This document shows positions 3,313 to 61,947 of a stretch of 64,000 bases of DNA, in pieces. A program made the position numbers and the translations under genes. The stretch's first letter is position 1, and every line of letters begins with the position of its first letter. Below the pieces are notes generated by a model. It worked only from the letters and a program-made list of their open reading frames with translations, had not been told where the DNA came from and ran no database searches. This DNA is from an uncultured virus (IMG/VR IMGVR_UViG_3300025647_000017) (Duplodnaviria; Heunggongvirae; Uroviricota; Caudoviricetes), in the IMG/VR virus record IMGVR_UViG_3300025647_000017. The stretch is one strand, 5' to 3'.

Positions 3313-5346
3313 ATGAGGAGAAGTTTAGTGAGTGAGTATGATAGTGGTTTATTTATAGGAGAACATCATGCCTGTTTATCTACTGAGTTTCCTATTACTA
3401 AATATGGGAAGCCACGTAGATCATGTAACTCTAGTGATGGTTTAGCAGTATATGAACATACAATGACAACAGGAGAGTTATATTACGATGCTGTATGTTT
3501 CTCTTGTAAACAGGGTTTTACCAAGGAAGAAGTACATTCATCAAGTCTGACAGGTAATTTAGGTATTGATCCTTCGGTAGGTAAAGTTACCAAAGTTATG
3601 GAATTTGTCAATAAAGCCTCTAAGAAGTTACCTATTACCAGAGAAGAACGTGATATTCTATGGAATAAGACGGGTTGGGAGGCTAAAGGTTTTCGTGGGT
3701 TTACCGATGAGATATTAAAATTCTATGGGCATAGGACTGAGTTAAATGCTAATGGAGAGGTGATTGCTCAGTACTACCCTGAGACAGAAGATTACAAACT
3801 TACGGGATACAAATCATGTCATGAACCTAAACGGTTCGGTATAGGTAATGTAGGAAAAACAGGACTTAGTAGCCAATTAAGTGGTCAACATAAATTCCCA
3901 GAAGGTGGTAAATATGCCTTGATAGTAGGCGGGGAAAAAGATAAAATTGCAGCACAAATTATGCTCCGTGAATATCAGGTAAAGAAACGACAAGATGGGT
4001 ACAACCATTATAGTGTAGTTAGCCCTACAACAGGAGAACCTTCTGCTGCAAAACAATGTAGACAACAATACGACTGGTTAAACTCGCATGAAGTTATTGT
4101 GATTGGCATGGATGCAGACGAAGTGGGGTTTGAGGCAGCCTTAGAGATAGCATCAGTATTACCAAAAGAAAAGGTGCGTATTGCTACATGGAGTGGTAAA
4201 GACCCTAATAAAATGTTATTAGATGGAAGACAGGCACAATTTTTATCTGATTTCTTTGGAGCTAAACCTTTAATTGAGACAGGTGTGTATGATGCTAATA
4301 TAGACTTCATGCAAGGTGTAATTGAAGTATTAACTACCCCAAGAATACCACTACCCCCTCATATGTATAAGTTACAAGAAATGACAAAAGGCGCAGGTTT
4401 ATTTACTAGATCCATATATTCACTCATAGGTGACACGAGCGTTGGTAAATCAACTCACATTGAGAGTATGATTGATTATTGGATGTTTAATGTACCTGAC
4501 CATAAGGTAGGTATTGTAAGTTTAGAGGCTAACAAGGAAGAGTGGACAGCATCTATGTTATCTACATTTCTAACTAACAACTTGTGGTGGATTCCTGTAG
4601 ATGAAGTTAAGGATTACTTACAGCGTCCAGACATAGTTGAAAAGTGTAAATCTTTCTTCTATAATGAATATGGGGAACCACGATTCGCTATCTTAGATGA
4701 TAGGGAAAATACGGTACATTCTTTAGAAAAGAATATAGAACGCTTAGTTAAACAGTTTGGTTGTACTATTATTGTTAATGATGTACTTACAGATGTATTA
4801 AGAACAGCGTCTAACGAAGACCAAGCTGCACATTTTAATTGGCAGAGTAACTTAGTTAAAGGGGGCACAACAATCTTTAATGTACTGCATACCCGTAAAT
4901 CCCCTTCAGATAGGAAAGGTAAGCCAACTTTTCCAGATGAAATGGACACATATGGTAGTTCGATATTCGTCCAAAAGGCTGCAGGTAACTTTATTATTGC
5001 ACGTAATAAGAATGCACCAGAAGATGATATGATTGAACAAAATACAACGTATATGAAAGTAACTAAACTTCGTAAGGGTGTTACAGGTATGGCTGGTGCA
5101 TTATATTATGATGGAGAGAGTAAAGTTATTGCTGATAGAGACCAATTTTTTGCTGCCAACCCAGATAAACTACCTGTAGGATATGACCTAAGCGTTAGTA
5201 GTTTTGATAAGGCTTATTGGGAAGAAGGTGGTAGAGGTTATAACGGGGAAGGGTCTGAAGGTAGTTTTAGTGGTAATAAACAAAATAAAACTTTCACTAT
5301 CAATACAGACAATGCACCAATAGATGTAGGAGGGTTCACACTTTGA
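3313..5346 (+). CDS. Bifunctional DNA primase-helicase (T7 gp4-like)
   Basis: N-terminal Cys-rich Zn region, Toprim motifs (GGEKD, MDAD, GKDPN), Walker A GDTSVGKS, DnaB-type C-terminal half; probable start GTG at 3328 after AGGAG. Confidence 0.9.
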   Translation: MRRSLVSEYDSGLFIGEHHACLSTEFPITKYGKPRRSCNSSDGLAVYEHTMTTGELYYDAVCFSCKQGFTKEEVHSSSLTGNLGIDPSVGKVTKVMEFVNKASKKLPITREERDILWNKTGWEAKGFRGFTDEILKFYGHRTELNANGEVIAQYYPETEDYKLTGYKSCHEPKRFGIGNVGKTGLSSQLSGQHKFPEGGKYALIVGGEKDKIAAQIMLREYQVKKRQDGYNHYSVVSPTTGEPSAAKQCRQQYDWLNSHEVIVIGMDADEVGFEAALEIASVLPKEKVRIATWSGKDPNKMLLDGRQAQFLSDFFGAKPLIETGVYDANIDFMQGVIEVLTTPRIPLPPHMYKLQEMTKGAGLFTRSIYSLIGDTSVGKSTHIESMIDYWMFNVPDHKVGIVSLEANKEEWTASMLSTFLTNNLWWIPVDEVKDYLQRPDIVEKCKSFFYNEYGEPRFAILDDRENTVHSLEKNIERLVKQFGCTIIVNDVLTDVLRTASNEDQAAHFNWQSNLVKGGTTIFNVLHTRKSPSDRKGKPTFPDEMDTYGSSIFVQKAAGNFIIARNKNAPEDDMIEQNTTYMKVTKLRKGVTGMAGALYYDGESKVIADRDQFFAANPDKLPVGYDLSVSSFDKAYWEEGGRGYNGEGSEGSFSGNKQNKTFTINTDNAPIDVGGFTL

Positions 5347-23718: not shown

Positions 23719-24284
23719 TACGTTTTCCCTGTTTCTATAGCAAGTCCAGTAAGTTTGAACCCATCAACAACCGTTTTAGTACCAGTCTTAGGGTCAGTGG
23801 TGCCAGCTAAAGATGAACCTGTACCAGCACTAGGAGATACTGTGACAGTTGTTAATGTGTCAAGGGATGCCTTCATACCAAAATCTAATTGCTGTATTGA
23901 GAGGTTGACTGCAAGGCTATCCTTACCTTCCTTCATATAGGAAAAACTTGTTATAACACAATTATCAAACGAAGGAACCATCCTATCTTCAGTACCATAC
24001 AGAGTAAATACTACCACATCATCAATAACTTGATTGACTAGAGTAATATAATCTTCTGGTGCAGGAGAGTCATTCCTCACTTTAGTTTGGTTAATTGTGC
24101 CAACTAAGTTTATACTAGGTAAATCTGGGTGGTAATGATCACTAACCTTGACACCAGACTGCAGAGTATGTTGAGCCACTGATGCTGAACGTGTAACTTC
24201 CATAGAAGATGTAACGTCCAACACCAATACAGTAGTGCCGTCCTTGGCTAGGAGGAACACTACATTTTTTAATAAACTAGCCAT
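23718..24284 (-). CDS. Tail tube initiator or Dit-like protein
   Basis: H.LQSG..VSDH motif; directly downstream of tape measure. Confidence 0.7.
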   Translation of the reverse strand: MASLLKNVVFLLAKDGTTVLVLDVTSSMEVTRSASVAQHTLQSGVKVSDHYHPDLPSINLVGTINQTKVRNDSPAPEDYITLVNQVIDDVVVFTLYGTEDRMVPSFDNCVITSFSYMKEGKDSLAVNLSIQQLDFGMKASLDTLTTVTVSPSAGTGSSLAGTTDPKTGTKTVVDGFKLTGLAIETGKT

Positions 24285-27200
24285 TAGTTTTGTACCTCCC
24301 TTATTTTAGAGTCAACCATATCTTTCACTGCACCACTATTTGAAATAGTAACACCCATCTTCTCTGCATCTGCACCAATAGTGATGTTAACTGCATTTGA
24401 ACTAGATGAACTTCCAAACCACGATGGTGATTTATTTGTTGCATCAAACCAAGTTGGTAACCCTAATCCTTGGTCTAACTTGTCAGCGAATAAGAATAGG
24501 TTTTTAAAACTATCATAGAATGGTGTGAGTGGTGAATTAGATAATGTTTTATCCATGCCAGACATGTAACCTGATCCTAGAGTAAAACCGCTGTTACCTT
24601 TTTTCTTCTCACGAGGGTCAAATAATACACCAATTTTATCTTGGTTAAATAAGTTGATTAATTCCTCACCCCAGAATGCAGCCATTTTGATACTATCTGC
24701 AATAGCTAAAGCTGCGGCTACAACAGGACTCATTCTGCCTAATAAACCTGTGAACATAGGTAAGAACCTACTCATAGTTTTTAAGCTGATAGCCCAGTAT
24801 CCAGCAAATGCTGCCATTGGTACTAAGAAGCTACTGTCACCCATTAGTTTAGTTAAGTCATCAAGTAGTACACCAACAGCTTTAAGTGTAGGAGTGACGG
24901 CTTTTAGACCTGCAGAGAGGATCTTAAACACTGAACCAATGATACGACCTAGTGATACCCATAAAGGTTTAAGGTCAACCACAGACTTTGCAGTCTCGTT
25001 AAATAGTTCAGTCAAACCTTCGGCAAATCCAGACTTAAATATCAAGTCACCAGCTTCTTGGAATGATAAACCTAAACGGTTCATTGCCACACGGTTAGAT
25101 AACATGGCTTTGTCTAAACCACCATTAGCACGAGCAGCCTCAGACATACGTTTAGCAAAGAATGGTAATACCTTTTCAGATATCAAACCACCAGTTTGCT
25201 GTAGTGCCATCATAGATGCAACTGAACCATCTAAGGTTAAACCTGCGTCTTTTGCTGCCAGAGCCATTTGTAATATGGCATTTGGTAATACTTCCCCCAT
25301 TTGGAGTTTTCATTTATATACCTAAATTTTCACTTAGGATTAGACTATATCTTAACCCTGACGGGTCTGTATTTTCGAGTAAGATTCTACCCTACATCCT
25401 ATCGGATTAGTCTTTTGAGGTTATACCCTTTTTGCGTTGGCTCTTAGATATGTATTTACCTACCCACCAAGTATAGTCTTTGCTAATATTTTCAAAAGAA
25501 CATCTATATTTTATATTATTAACAGACTTCTTGTTTATCAGATCAGGAATGTCATATAAATCACAAATAAATTTACAACCAAAACCATATTCAAGTAGGT
25601 CACATATTTGTTTTGCTATTATAACAGTCATATTATCCGTAGGTTCTGGTTGTAAATTGTAGTCTTTTGTAAACCAAGAATACAAAACTCCAGTACGTAA
25701 TTTACTTATCTTATTTTTACTTACACCAGTAATAGTGTGTATTTCTAAGGTAGATTTACCACCCTCTATAAGTTTACAGATATCTTCCATAACACTAAGG
25801 GCTAGATCCCTTTTATGGTCACTGGCATGTTCAGGCATATTATCTACATAATGTTTTGAATTCTCTTTGTAGGTTATCCATTCAAGATTGTTCACATTGC
25901 AGTTACTTTTGTCCAAGTCTTTATGATTGACTATCAACCCTTTTTGGTAGGTATCTAATAAGAATGCTTTTGCAACTAAAGTATGACAATTTCTGTACAT
26001 ATTCTTGCCGTTTACACCTCTTAAATTAACACCCCAATAACCACCATCATAAATTCTTCTACTTAGATATCTGTTACTTTTATAACTATACACATTCCCA
26101 TTTTTTATCTACTGAATAGTCTGGGAATTCTTCTATCACTTTTAGCATTATAATCTCCTTCAATGGAGATCAGGTATATTCCTAACGGATTACCTAATCT
26201 TGACACATTTTTACTTTACCAAACACATTACTGTTTGCCCTAACCTATATTACTATGGCTAGTTAGTAGTGTCAAGCTCTAAAGGCTTTCCCGTTTTAAC
26301 ACATTTTATTTAGACACATTTCTGTGAATAGAGCCAAAACTTGAGTTAAATCAATAACTTAGCTCTTCTGCTGAAACTACCCCTTTCAATTCTGTTAATA
26401 TTAGTCGTTAATTAATATATACCTTTTAGTATCTCTATATTACTATAGATGTTCAGACTATATCTTCACTATTTTACAGTGCATTACGTTTCGATACCAC
26501 TTAGTACCTACATCCTATCGGATTAGTCGTTGAGGGCCACCTAGATTATTCTAGACTCCCTGCTGATCACCCAAGTTGGGCTTCCCAGCATATATAATGT
26601 TTTACATGAGCTAAGGTTAACTCATCCTATACACCCTGTATTACTACAAGGATTAGACTATATCTTAACCTTCAACTTAATGTTAAGGTTATTTACGCTT
26701 CGAGGACAATTTATTATCACCCCCTACACTCTTACGAGTTAGTCTTTACACGTTCCTCTTATATGAGGCTTCGCTCGGTATTGTCCTACTTCCTTTTAGG
26801 AGTTTCACCGAATTCATAAATTTAATTATTCATCATATTTCTATGAAGCCAAACAATGATTTATTTGTTGCAAAGCGTTTGTCTATGGACTATATCTTAA
26901 TCCTAAAAAAGGATTCCTTATTTTCGATTAAACTGTATAATCTACACCCTAAAGGGTTAGTCTCTGAAGGTTCTTACTTTAGTAAGGTTCCCTGCTGATT
27001 GTCTCTAATGAAATATCCCAGCAATTAAAAAGGTTTTACATTTAATATTACTATTAAAAGGAGCCACAAACCATTTAGCTCTTGTACTTTCTTCTGCACT
27101 TAGCCCTAGAAGGGTTGACATTTCTGAAATTCCTACGAAAGAGGCTTTCACATCTTCCAGACTCATCTTCCCTCGTGCAGATAACATCTTGGCAAAGTTC

Positions 27201-28021
27201 TTACCACTTGATGCTAATCCTAACCCCAGTCTGTATGCTTCGTCCCTGACGAACTTGAAGTTGTCACCTGCTTCCTTGGAGTTTGTACTTACTGCCAACA
27301 TTGTATTACTTACAGATTCGAAATCCTGTCCTACTCTAGTAATACCTACACCCAACCCTGCTACAGCGAACGCTGATAACATGTTACCTGCAAACTGTTT
27401 ACTGGATGCTGACATACGTTGCATAAGGAAGTTCTGCTTGTGCATAGAACGTTCTGATTGCCTCATAACACGGAGTCTTTCCCTCTCCATAGCAATGAGT
27501 AACCTAACTTCTTTTGCAGTCCTAGCCTTAGCTACAGACTCTCTCAATGCAGCTTGAGCTAGACGTTCTTGCTCATTGGTAGCAGCTTTAAGGTTTAACC
27601 CTGATCTTCCAAAAGTTTCTTTGGCTGAACTAAGGTTGGTTACTCGTCTACTTTCCATCCTAGCTTGTCTATTTAACTCTGCTTCTCTAGCTTTAACATG
27701 AGCATTATTACTAGGTAAGCTTGTTGGTATTCCAGCTTTAGCTCTTTCTACTGCAGCTTTTTTCTCAAACTTTATGTTCTGTTTAATTGCTGCAATATGT
27801 GCTGCACTTAAATCCTTTTCTCGTTTAACTTTATTATTGTATTCTTTATTTAAATGCTTCTCACGTTCCTTATGGTGAGCATTCATCATCTTCTGATTAG
27901 AACGAGTAGAGGCTTCTTGTTTCTTACCAAAATTCCCCATCTTCTTCTCGAAGTCTTGTAACTTTTTAAGTGCGGTATCAAACCCTACCTCCACCGTATA
28001 CTTTACAATTTCCTCTGCCAT
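24284..28021 (-). CDS. Tape measure protein, spliced from 5 exons: 28021..27077, 26882..26863, 26626..26620, 26386..26361, 25310..24284 (674 aa)
   Basis: Splicing gives ...EESTRA|TNALQQM|MS|KGVVSAEEL|KLQMGEVLP..., the conserved tape-measure domain motif; total 2025 nt in frame; follows the tail chaperones. Confidence 0.92.
25311..26360 (-). mobile_element. Group I intron TMP-i4 (1050 nt) with HNH ORF in P6
   Basis: P1 GAGCU/GGCUC; P10 AGUUUU/AAAACU; extended P5; P7 GACUA/UAGUC; P9 GAAA; terminal G at 25311. Confidence 0.92.
25407..26148 (-). pseudogene. Intron-encoded NUMOD4-HNH homing endonuclease with a +1 frameshift in an A6 run
   Basis: AAGGAG RBS and ATG at 26148 give MLKVIEEFPDYSVDK; one extra A at 26101-26106 breaks continuity with NGNVYSYKS...H.LVA..F...VNHKD..K.NC..NNLEW. 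Confidence 0.75.
26387..26619 (-). mobile_element. Group I intron TMP-i3 (233 nt, no ORF)
   Basis: P1 AUGAGU/GCUCAU; P10 CCUU/AAGG; UGCUGG..UCAGCA P4; P7; P9 GUAA; begins with in-frame UAA. Confidence 0.92.
26627..26862 (-). mobile_element. Group I intron TMP-i2 (236 nt, no ORF)
   Basis: P1 CAAAU/GUUUG; P10 UCAUU/GAUGA; UUCGGUG..ACCGAG P4; P7; P2 GAAA and P9 GUAA tetraloops. Confidence 0.92.
26883..27076 (-). mobile_element. Group I intron TMP-i1 (194 nt, no ORF, no P9)
   Basis: P1 GAGCU/GGCUC; P10 GUUUGU/ACAAAC; AAUUGCUGGGA and AAUCAGCAGG core; ends AAGAUAUAGUCCAUAG. Confidence 0.88.
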
Positions 28022-59350: not shown

Positions 59351-61947
59351 TTACTTGATGCGGCTTCTGTGGGCAGCCAATGCCGTGGGGGAGGAGATTG
59401 TTGGTAGTGGGTAGGCTTTATGCAATTTAGTCTTTTGCAGAAAAGCCATACAATCGCCAGCGCAGTCAACCCAGTCATCCTTGATCGATGCTGTAGATGG
59501 ACTTCCATCAAAAGCTTCTAACTCTTTGTAGAAAGCCTCTAAAGTGGCTTTATTTTCAAAAGAACTTTCAACTATATGTACTAACCCATTCTGACATGCA
59601 GAAGAGAATATAGAGAAACGCTTTACTTTGCCACCTTTTACGTTACCAACTTCAGAACCTCTTACATGAAAACCTTCATTTGTAAGCATCTTAGCTAAGT
59701 CTTCAAACTGCGCCTTACCAGCGCCACTCTCTTTAGGCAGTAATATATAAGTATCTTCTCCATCCCATTGAGCTTGTTGCAACATCCATGTATTTCTCTC
59801 GCCAAAGCGTTTCCTAAACCTACCAACTACATCAGTTTTAGGGTCTTTTATCTCTGGGTGATAATTAGCAACTATAAAATATAGGCCGTCCTTTCTAATC
59901 ATACGTACTGATGCAGAATAATCTGGATATCTATTTTTGTCACTAGGTTCAGAATGAGCTAAATCCCATGCTCTACATGCTAAACCTCCAACTGGCTCAT
60001 TATCTACTTTGTGTAACCACTCCCTCTGGAATAGGTTACTCCCTTCTGGTCTTGCTAGCCAATTCGATTTGTTACAAAATTGTTAAATCTTGCACCTTAC
60101 GGTCTCTATGTCACCATAGAAGTTCAGACTATATCTTTACCTATTAAGGTATCTAACATTTCCACCTACTAGAAGTAAGCGTACACCATTTCTGGTTAGT
60201 CGTTGCACTACACAATTATATATTTTGCATAGCTCAGTATTGTCTCAGAGAGATATCCACTGAATTAAATAGATTTATAAAGACGGCAATTGTTCACCGT
60301 CTAGTAGTCTTGCCCTGTTAATCTTAGTCTGTGCCTTAAGTGCAGACAGATACTTCGGATTTTGTTTGATTAGGGCTGGATTCTTAACTCCTTGTTTTAT
60401 AACAAGGAGTTTGGACTATATCTTCACCTCTAAAGGTGTTCTATTTTCGAGTATAAGCACCCTACACCCTAACGGGTTAGTCTCTGAAGGTGTTAACCTA
60501 TGGTTAACGTCCCTGCTGATTGTCTTTAGTTTATAAAGAGTTCCCAGCAATTAAAAGAATTTTCACCATGAAATTACTAACATGGGCGACAATCATCTAT
60601 CGAATATATTTCCCCCAATAAAACAAAACGTCATTGGAGGGACGTACACTGTCTTATCTTCAATTGGATTATACACATAACATAGGTCTGGGTATTGCTC
60701 TGCCAATGTTTCAGGATCATCTGCGAACACTGGGGTATCATCAACTACCAAGAAATATCTTATATGCCCTAATTTACTCTCATCAAACACTCCAGTTTCA
60801 TCTAAATAATACTCTACCCATTGAAAAACCCAACTATCTGCATCTGGGTTGGTAGTGGCTAACATAAATGAATCACTGTCTGCAGCAGAACGCATACGTC
60901 CCATTAAATATAAAAACTGCGAACAAGTGAAGTGAGTTAGTTCATCGAATCCGACAAAAGAATATTGTAAACCTTGCTTGTAACCTATTGATTACTATGG
61001 ACTATATCACTGTCTACTTAGTAGACACTCTATTTTCGAGATTGTATTAATCCCTACACCCTAACGGGTTAGTCTCTGAAGGTGTTAACCTAGGGTTAAC
61101 GTCCCTGCTGATTGGTCACTACGTGACTATCCCAGCAATTAAAAGAGTTATTCGAAACACATTACTGTATTAAGCCACCAAATTTTAATGGTTACCTTCC
61201 GCGTCACTTTCATGCTCAAGGTGTGTAAATTTAAGGTTGCCTCCTTTATTACCCTCTGCACCACTGAACATGATTTCCATGTCCTTTTCTCTCACCCTTG
61301 TTCCTAGGGGTTGGTATAATTTCTTTGCCTCACTAAACAGACCACCTGCTGCTTTCAATGGAGGGGAAGTCCTACGGAACATTACCCCCTCAAAGTTGGG
61401 GTCGTTGTGAGCGTAATACCCTGCCTTCAATAAGAGTAACCTACTTTTGCCAGATCCTGCCAAACTGGACTATTATTCTTTATGTCACCATAAAGCTTAG
61501 ATCATATCTTCCACATATAAGTGGCTTTCCATTTCGAGTATAAATACCCTACACCTCTTCAGGTTGATCGTTGCACACAGTATAATTAAATACCTTCGCT
61601 CAGTATTGTCTCGTAGAGATATCCACTGAATTAGAAAAGTTGATTATCGAGGTGCCACAGGATTTACTAGCACCTCCGTAGATCATTACATCTACCTTCA
61701 TTTGCGCTGCTAACGCTTGTTTCACTACCTTACGTGGATCGTTACACCACTCTATGCATTACTGCACAAGTTGAGACTATATCTTATTACTCTATTGTTT
61801 CGAGTTCACTTGAACTCTACATCCTTTCGGATTAGTCGTTACACGTTTTTAATTCGCTAGGTATTATCCTATAAGGGACCTTCACCTAATTAAATAGATT
61901 TATAGTAGGCAAACATTACCTACTTGCGGGGATAATTCATTACTCAT
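59351..61947 (-). CDS. terL: Terminase large subunit, spliced from 6 exons: 61947..61918, 61722..61669, 61460..61188, 60976..60599, 60382..60296, 60064..59351 (511 aa)
   Basis: Splicing restores SPQVG|KQ, Walker A YGGA|AGSGKS, H|QGLQYSFVGFDELTHF Walker B, TTNP, D|NPAL, RLLDG|NW, RAWDLA, PDYSA and DDWVD; 1536 nt in frame. Confidence 0.93.
60065..60295 (-). mobile_element. Group I intron terL-i5 (231 nt, no ORF)
   Basis: P1 GACGGU/GCCGUC; P10 CAAUU/AAUUG; P7 GACUA/UAGUC; P9 GUGA; terminal G at 60065. Confidence 0.92.
60383..60598 (-). mobile_element. Group I intron terL-i4 (216 nt, no ORF)
   Basis: P1 CGAU/GUCG; P10 GAUU/AAUC; UUGCUGG..UCAGCAG core; P7; terminal G at 60383. Confidence 0.92.
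60977..61187 (-). mobile_element. Group I intron terL-i3 (211 nt, no ORF)
   Basis: P1 CCAU/GUGG; P10 UUG/CAA; begins with UAA; core nearly identical to i4; terminal G at 60977. Confidence 0.92.
61461..61668 (-). mobile_element. Group I intron terL-i2 (208 nt, no ORF), inside Walker A
   Basis: P1 GAGGUGCU/GGCACCUC; P10 UCCUGU/GCAGGA; variant P7 GAUCA/UGAUC; P9 GUGA. Confidence 0.92.
61723..61917 (-). mobile_element. Group I intron terL-i1 (195 nt, no ORF, no P2 or P8)
   Basis: P1 GUAGGU/GCCUAC; P10 UGUUU/AAACA; P3 UCUAUU/AAUAGA; P7; P9 GUAA; terminal G at 61723. Confidence 0.9.

Follow-up and report, generated by a model that had tools for sequence, protein, structure and literature searches.

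A 7-nt exon between two group I introns of a phage tape-measure gene as the putative partner of two mutually exclusive helices

The tail tape-measure gene of an uncultured member of Caudoviricetes (IMG/VR record IMGVR_UViG_3300025647_000017), represented by a stretch of 64,000 nt (hereafter, the window), is located on the minus strand at 28021..24284. Reading of the strand and of its coordinates shows that the gene is interrupted by four group I introns, and that joining the exons gives one frame that stays open for 674 codons and is closed by a stop. Between introns 2 and 3 lies the heptanucleotide GAUGAGU (26620..26626), which is exon 3 of the gene. Group I ribozymes set both splice sites by pairing a guide with few exon bases. 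A 7-nt exon cannot serve at the same time the P10 helix of the upstream intron and the P1 helix of the downstream intron, and the way in which neighbouring ribozymes share a substrate has been little studied.

Exon 1 (27077..28021; all features of the gene are on the minus strand) figures in the list of open reading frames (ORFs). It includes 315 codons and ends on a codon boundary with AGAGCU, the last five bases forming P1 with GGCUC of intron 1. Intron 1 (26883..27076) is 194 nt long, lacks ORFs and has G26883 as omega-G. Exon 2 (26863..26882; 20 nt) is followed by intron 2 (26627..26862), 236 nt in length, similarly devoid of ORFs and with omega-G at G26627. Past exon 3, intron 3 (26387..26619; 233 nt, no ORF, omega-G at G26387) opens with an in-frame UAA. 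Exon 4 (26361..26386) measures 26 nt, and ends with AGAGCU. Intron 4 (25311..26360; 1050 nt) contains an ORF for a homing endonuclease of the HNH type, and features the helices P1 AGAGCU/GGCUCU and P10 AAAACU/AGUUUU. Exon 5 (24284..25310), also found in the ORF list, is made of 1 nt, 341 codons and the stop. The products of exons 1 and 5 match tape-measure families of the PHROG collection, the best match being that of exon 1 to phrog_30206 (E 2.2e-122); phrog_28779 is matched by both. No family corresponding to the exon products was found in Pfam and NCBIfam. In phrog_28779, which is an uninterrupted profile, the match of exon 1 stops at position 304 and that of exon 5 starts at 324. The gap of 19 positions compares with 18 residues encoded by the small exons, and uninterrupted tape-measure profiles thus agree with the junctions. 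PHROG matches identify the surroundings as the tail module of a large myovirus, with genes for tail sheath, tail assembly chaperone, tape-measure protein and baseplate hub. The nearest cultured relatives are the Shewanella phages 1/4 and 1/40, about 83% identical at the DNA level over parts of the gene.

On the strand, intron 2 ends at G26627, exon 3 spans 26626..26620 and intron 3 begins at U26619. These borders, which are those of the initial annotation, and all the other junctions of the gene are fixed at the DNA level by relatives lacking one or more introns, namely phages 1/4 and 1/40 and the related records L006, L007 and L009. In phages 1/40 and 1/4 introns 1 and 2 occupy identical positions, intron 3 is missing, and exons 3 and 4 are contiguous. 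In L009 exons 1, 2 and 3 are contiguous and intron 3 follows at the same site, the ORF reading through to the UAA of the intron. L007 has no interruption at the first three intron sites, and its translation agrees with the residues encoded by the small exons of the window at 15 positions out of 18. Intron 1 is absent in both L009 and L007. A shift of either border by one base would alter the intron-less sequence, and the spliced peptide, 35 residues long, is identical in four genomes. An alternative exon 2 located at 26875..26856 was rejected, because it includes an in-frame stop.

Introns 2 and 3 match the Rfam group I family RF00028 with 82.6 bits at 26868..26634 and 58.4 bits at 26629..26433, respectively, the gathering score being 50 bits. 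Both matches cover the full model (1-253) and are not cut off, and a third full-length match in the gene, at 27087..26876, corresponds to intron 1 (58.9 bits). Introns 2 and 3 of the related contig L008 likewise match RF00028, and a single sub-threshold intron match was found in the nearest record, G001. The 3' ends of the Rfam matches (26634 for intron 2, 26433 for intron 3) were discarded as splice sites, since they break the frame and conflict with the intron-less alleles. The rule that the 5' exon ends with U and the intron ends with G is obeyed by all the 25 introns modelled in seven genomes. RNAalifold, run on five copies of intron 2, draws 70 pairs, 6 of which exhibit compensatory changes, and recovers P1. 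For intron 3 only three copies could be compared and changes in the hairpins were read by eye, so that support by covariation is weaker than for intron 2. Introns of subgroup IA2 are characterized by the extra hairpins P7.1 and P7.2, located between P7 and P3', and by the lack of a P5abc extension. In the Rfam alignments, which are to the general group I model, 33-40 nt are inserted next to the 5' strand of P7 on its 3' side, and RNAalifold draws two hairpins there. Introns 2 and 3 are predicted to be self-splicing.

The guide of intron 2 consists of UCAUU (26859..26855) followed by GUUUG (26854..26850). GUUUG forms P1 with CAAAU at the end of exon 2. UCAUU pairs in register, and contiguously with P1, with bases 1-5 of exon 3 (GAUGA), the five pairs of this P10 being G.U, A-U, U-A, G-C and A-U. 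The guide of intron 3, GCUCAU (26611..26606), pairs with bases 2-7 of the same exon (AUGAGU), with a U.G pair at the splice site, and the cmscan alignment sets P1 at this very place. Two further intron pairs extend this P1 to an 8-bp hairpin with a loop of 4 nt. The four exon bases AUGA (26625..26622) are hence claimed both by intron 2, for its 5-bp P10, and by intron 3, for its 6-bp P1, as had been proposed in the initial annotation. Because both helices use AUGA, they are mutually exclusive. Full pairing with GAUGA is offered by 9 of the 1762 five-mers of the intron region (0.5%), the random expectation being 0.9%. In-register P10 helices of 6, 5 and 6 contiguous pairs may be drawn for introns 1, 2 and 4, respectively, and one of 4 pairs, starting from position +2, for intron 3. 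P10 of intron 1, ACAAA(C)/(G)UUUGU, covaries between the window and L006, in which it reads GUAAA/UUUAU. Of the two predicted helices sharing exon 3, P10 of intron 2 is the weaker claim.

The occupancy of exon 3 was evaluated by folding. By nearest-neighbour energies, the P1 hairpin of intron 3 is worth -7.7 to -8.2 kcal/mol, and P10 of intron 2 -1.8 to -3.4 kcal/mol. In a partition-function fold of a precursor of 563 nt, bases 2-7 of exon 3 are paired to the guide of intron 3 with probabilities of 0.90-1.00; after removal of intron 3, the total pairing probability of bases 1-5 falls within 0.08-0.42. Within the limits of the folding model, exon 3 would be held by intron 3 until the latter is done. 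The stability of the P1 hairpin and the pairing in the precursor suggest that exon ligation by intron 2 probably occurs after the exit of intron 3, or without P10. Helix occupancy, splicing order, and both the occurrence and the accuracy of splicing in this phage are here predicted from sequence. Among the 24 sequencing runs listed as containing the stretch, none is an RNA run.

A plausible scheme can be drawn. Intron 2 would be the resident intron, and intron 3 a mobile intron inserted 7 nt downstream, an event that would have created the 7-nt exon. Each intron would be an autonomous ribozyme; each is found alone in relatives, and therefore neither depends on the other. The exon would play a double role, as 3'-exon partner of intron 2 in P10 and as 5'-exon partner of intron 3 in P1. 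In the precursor, the local 8-bp P1 hairpin would outcompete the long-range 5-bp P10 and keep the exon bound to intron 3, while the first step of intron 2 would proceed freely. Ligation of the exons by intron 2 would either follow the joining of exons 3 and 4 by intron 3 and its release, or take place P10-free, by means of omega-G and the core. The outcome would be a kinetic bias in the order of splicing, possibly accompanied by some loss of efficiency or fidelity. Once the four chemical steps are interleaved no dead end is met, since only the two ligations cannot use the exon simultaneously. On balance, we consider it fairly probable that GAUGAGU is a genuine 7-nt exon shared by two exclusive helices, which impose a kinetic bias and no obligatory order.

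The initial annotation had concluded that the two introns must splice sequentially, or compete. The conclusion is reasonable but probably too strong, and folding points to a kinetic bias, not to a forced order. In its stricter form, suggested by the title given to the observation, exon ligation by intron 2 would have to wait for the removal of intron 3. The nearly complete sequestration of bases 2-7 in the precursor, and their being largely free afterwards, would fit such an order, as would the gap in stability of about 4-6 kcal/mol. In addition, P1 of intron 3 begins one base away from the last base of intron 2, and two docked cores would probably clash. The interleaving of steps noted above, which leaves no logical dead end, argues to the contrary. 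Moreover, P10, an accessory helix, is dispensable in other introns (PMC10136302), and at the 1-nt micro-exon lying between two group IB introns in the placozoan mitochondrial cox1 gene, RNA-seq revealed both half-spliced intermediates and no strict order (PMC5436844). We regard an obligatory order as unlikely.

The same two studies are in line with the opposite view, that the introns splice independently, in either order and at unchanged rates, P10 of intron 2 being irrelevant or unformed and the overlap inconsequential. In tandem Tetrahymena constructs splicing was weakened but persisted once P10 had been disrupted (PMC10136302), and both placozoan intermediates were detected (PMC5436844). 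The site-4 intron of L007 has, by reading, no P10 at all. The state of P10 in intron 2 itself, dealt with below, points in the same direction. Independence, however, has to face the in-register P10 of 5-6 pairs found in three of the four introns of the window, each expected by chance at about 0.5-0.9%, and the compensatory change in P10 of intron 1. Furthermore, the 3' splice site of intron 2 falls within the GG pair 26627/26626, and the register of P10 would help in picking the right G. Fully independent splicing is regarded as unlikely, though slightly less so than an obligatory order.

The reading of a shared exon with a kinetic bias has in turn to contend with several unfavourable points. 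P10 of intron 2 is not supported by covariation, both strands being invariant in the five copies compared, and L006 has lost the fifth of its pairs. The energies are those of nearest-neighbour secondary structures, and omit both the tertiary stabilisation of P10 within the core and the P1/P10 pseudoknot. Records L003, L004, L011 and L014 duplicate the window exactly and are not independent of it. In run X7, a sediment metagenome, one contig joint omits exactly 26627..26862, that is intron 2, and another omits 194 nt matching intron 1 (listed as 'both' 1), but the shorter side of both joints is 30 letters long with 85% likeness, which is borderline and makes them supporting only. Finally, the 8-nt exon of Vibrio phage ICP1, described below, rests on the reading of the sequence, and the available text of PMC10448857 gives no exon sizes. 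Three other joints were not read as alleles. The one in run X6 listed as 'skips 39, 274 letters between' would fit the additional intron found in L008 at site +45 (sites are counted from the end of exon 1); those listed as 'goes back 177' in X7 and 'goes back 1200' in X6 look like matches between related introns.

The tape-measure gene of ICP1, a related myovirus, is homologous to that of the window (42% protein identity to exon 5). Barth et al. 2023 (PMC10448857) describe four exons and three introns in it, a structure confirmed through RNA-seq, RT-PCR and Sanger sequencing. Like those of the window, the three group I-type introns fall within this conserved part of the gene, and the middle intron contains an HNH-3 gene (PMC10448857). 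The product of exon 5 is matched by 362 phage records in all. Reading the sequence by eye places the introns at sites +45, +53 and +69, with an exon 2 of 8 nt (1746..1753 in L018) and an exon 3 of 16 nt. By reading, the 8-nt exon is likewise contested by two helices, which have 3 bases in common. ICP1 differs in having no introns at sites 0, +20 and +27, and thus no 7-nt exon, and in that its splicing is experimentally confirmed, that of the window being predicted. Exon sizes, P1/P10 overlap and splicing order are not discussed in the available text of PMC10448857. An overlap on the 8-nt exon, together with a correctly spliced transcript, suggests that overlaps are tolerated and that a strict order is not needed.

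Other systems resemble that of the window in part. In the orf142 gene of Staphylococcus phage Twort, introns I2 and I3 flank a 23-nt exon, and exon skipping has been observed (reported via PMC10136302, PMC3073962 and PMC11878797). Here too, several ORF-less introns (in Twort, of the IA2 type) are neighbours within a tail gene and flank a very short exon, raising the same question of how neighbouring ribozymes share an exon. Unlike GAUGAGU, the Twort exon is long enough to accommodate P10 and P1 without overlap, and the two introns are highly similar. The placozoan cox1 micro-exon is likewise shorter than a P1 helix, and lies between separate group I introns as a result of a second insertion beside a resident intron; the gene is nevertheless mitochondrial, the introns are of the IB type, and the exon is reduced to 1 nt. 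Engineered tandem Tetrahymena introns around a 24-nt exon provide an experimental model of two group I ribozymes bordering a short exon, in which P1, P10 and P9 elements decide between inclusion and skipping (PMC10136302). In contrast to the case at hand, the construct is artificial, with identical or engineered IC1 introns and no P10/P1 overlap on the exon. The tape-measure genes of Bacillus cereus-group prophages host the group I introns TMP-IVS1, 2, 3a and 3b (Tourasse & Kolsto 2008, PMC2504315). As in the window and its relatives, introns (IA2 and IA1) occupy different sites of one gene, vary in presence, have site-adapted guides and have lost endonuclease genes. The hosts are, however, Gram-positive prophages, the sites are three, and no micro-exon shorter than 10 nt is described in the available text of PMC2504315. 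Further short exons on record are one of 3 nt in mitochondria (PMC2987802), those of 23 nt in Twort and 34 nt in Coxiella, named as short phage and bacterial exons in PMC10136302, and an 'additional small exon' of unstated size in phiNIT1 (PMC11878797). The finding is not a new principle, as both mitochondrial micro-exons between group I introns and multi-intron tape-measure genes have already been published (PMC5436844, PMC2504315, PMC10448857). In the limited library searched, no paper was found dealing with a P10/P1 overlap on one exon, nor with an order of group I splicing imposed by an overlap.

The introns of the window are part of a larger set. Seven insertion sites (0, +20, +27, +45, +53, +69 and +89, with the exon 1 border as zero) have been identified within 89 nt in eight related phage genomes. 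The map covers the window, L008, phages 1/40 and 1/4, L006, L007 and L009, plus ICP1 by sequence reading. At site +45 of L002 (one of the two Shewanella phages) and L006, the model of the 3' border is uncertain, giving one Glu fewer than in the other genomes. Genes have from 1 to 5 introns, in many combinations of sites. Intron 2 is found at the same site in 1/40, 1/4, L006, L008 and L017; in the first three intron 3 is missing. Intron 3 occurs without intron 2 in L009, and the two are found together in the window, L008, L017 and run X6. L008 and L017 feature five introns and small exons of 20, 7, 18 and 8 nt. Their 8-nt exon lies between sites +45 and +53 (about 5635..5914 in L008), and, by reading, 3 of its bases are shared between P10 of the intron before it and P1 of the intron after it. 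L009, which has no introns 1 and 2, hosts introns at sites +53 and +69 around an exon of 16 nt. Its orthologue of intron 3 (L009 1123..2125) is 1003 nt long and keeps a gene for an HNH_3 endonuclease of 226 residues, which the copy in the window has lost; intron 3 is for this reason considered mobile. Among 50,697 phage records, 15 match intron 3, none over 80% of its length and all in the conserved core only. Exact-word scans of viral contigs with the exon 3/intron 3 junction and with the guide region of intron 3 retrieved only the twin record of the window. Among the matches to the word at the start of intron 2 (6 loci), L012, L013, L014 and L016 duplicate other records and L015 is a chance match.

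No part of the tape-measure protein is more conserved than the stretch that the small exons encode. Highly conserved stretches are the kind of target that homing endonucleases favour. The existence of a 7-nt exon is best explained by a conserved stretch serving as landing strip for mobile group I introns. Related phages consequently offer a natural set of alleles, with intron 2 only, intron 3 only, or both, plus a second pair of introns around an 8-nt exon; for ICP1, a cultivable relative, RNA-seq data from infection are already published (PMC10448857).

The distribution is also of relevance for the hypothesis that introns 2 and 3 are a co-adapted pair, in which the hold of intron 3 on the 7-nt exon would gate or assist ligation by intron 2. 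The 3' tails of intron 2 were compared between the window (26627..26640, minus strand), L001 (3828..3858), L002 and L006, L001 and L002 being the two Shewanella phages. In the window, L008 and L017, all of which host intron 3, intron 2 lacks the last ~31 nt of the tail, being 236 nt long in the window vs 267, 267 and 255 nt in L001, L002 and L006, respectively. The P1 hairpin of intron 3 sits where the lost tail of intron 2 was. As only two lineages are involved, ancestry and adaptation are inseparable as sources of the short tail. Were the hypothesis correct, the production of an essential tail protein would be timed by the obligatory order of two self-splicing reactions; we hold it to be quite unlikely.

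That the 7-nt exon is an accident of a dead gene, made of decaying or chimeric sequence, was also considered. The sequence derives from a metagenome assembly, and in the window a frameshift disrupts the homing-endonuclease ORF carried by intron 4. This ORF (ATG at 26148, stop by 25407) matches the Pfam domain PF13392 HNH_3 (E 4.5e-08) and phrog_59, and is broken by one extra A in the A-run 26106..26101 on the minus strand. In L008 and in run X6 the A-run is shorter by one base (listed for X6 as 'left out 1' at 26101) and the ORF, of 258 residues, is intact. The broken ORF is either a pseudogene, that is a decaying endonuclease gene, or the product of a homopolymer sequencing error. The same arrangement of exons and introns, however, is present in L008, a contig of 129.7 kb with 96% identity in the exon 1 protein, in L017, and in the 126.6-kb contig of X6, obtained in another study. 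Differences between copies preserve the helices, and splicing yields an open frame of 674 codons. An accident of this kind is hardly credible.

In the initial annotation, skipping of exons 2+3 (27 nt) or 3+4 (33 nt) had been put forward as a source of slightly shorter tape-measure isoforms. The arithmetic holds, as both lengths are multiples of three and the frame would be kept, but the isoforms lack matching P1/P10 pairings. By reading, P10 of the cross joins would amount to 1 contiguous pair between the guide of intron 1 and exon 4, and to 2 pairs between the guide of intron 2 and exon 5. Skipping of an exon between tandem introns is known for Twort orf142, with its 23-nt exon (PMC10136302, PMC3073962), and has been described also in a Bastillevirinae phage (PMC11878797). 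In the engineered system, skipping was promoted when splice-site elements resembled one another (PMC10136302), whereas introns 2 and 3 have dissimilar guides (UCAUUGUUUG vs CCUUAGCUCAU), and the two introns differ in this from the neighbouring Twort-type introns, whose splice-site recognition elements are alike enough for one ribozyme to act at the site of the other. Skipping would furthermore remove the most conserved residues of the protein. Regulated skipping giving rise to in-frame isoforms lacking exons 2+3 or 3+4 appears very improbable. The sole well-paired cross join involves the guide of intron 4 and the end of exon 1, and the product would lose 53 nt and be out of frame. Exons 1 and 4 both end with AAGAGCU (27077..27083 and 26361..26367, minus strand), and the guides of introns 1 and 4, GGCUCC and GGCUCU, are near-identical. 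Given the shared exon ends and these guides, exon 1 could offer intron 4 a distal 5' splice site.

Exons of 7-26 nt escape gene callers. In the GenBank records of the two Shewanella phages (KJ018211 for L001 and KJ018209 for L002) the two large exons are annotated as separate proteins, a 'tape measure protein' and a 'hypothetical protein', and no intron is annotated. In the window, the frame of exon 1 continues for 23 codons into intron 1 before a stop is met (27005..27076, minus strand), covering P1 and P2 and reaching the core. Introns 2, 3 and 4 halt translation after 7, 0 and 3 codons, respectively.

Three further group I introns (53-75 bits) split the large terminase gene of the window at 60104..61197 on the minus strand. 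The exons between them measure ~370 and 85 nt, and no micro-exon is found there. Introns in the terminase genes of phages 1/4 and 1/40 have been mentioned in PMC8541194. A motif, AAGTYATTGATTTAAC, usually drawn as a small hairpin, recurs where intron 4 begins (5' side) and, in several other introns of the family, within the 3' tail. It is found in the window at 26330..26360 and 60085..60100 (both on the minus strand), in L001 at 3823..3858, and in L002 at 4110..4150 and 4920..4955. The motif could be a peripheral element of the ribozyme, a site for an endonuclease, or a remnant of recombination among introns. The tails of several introns end with TTAACAATTTTG.

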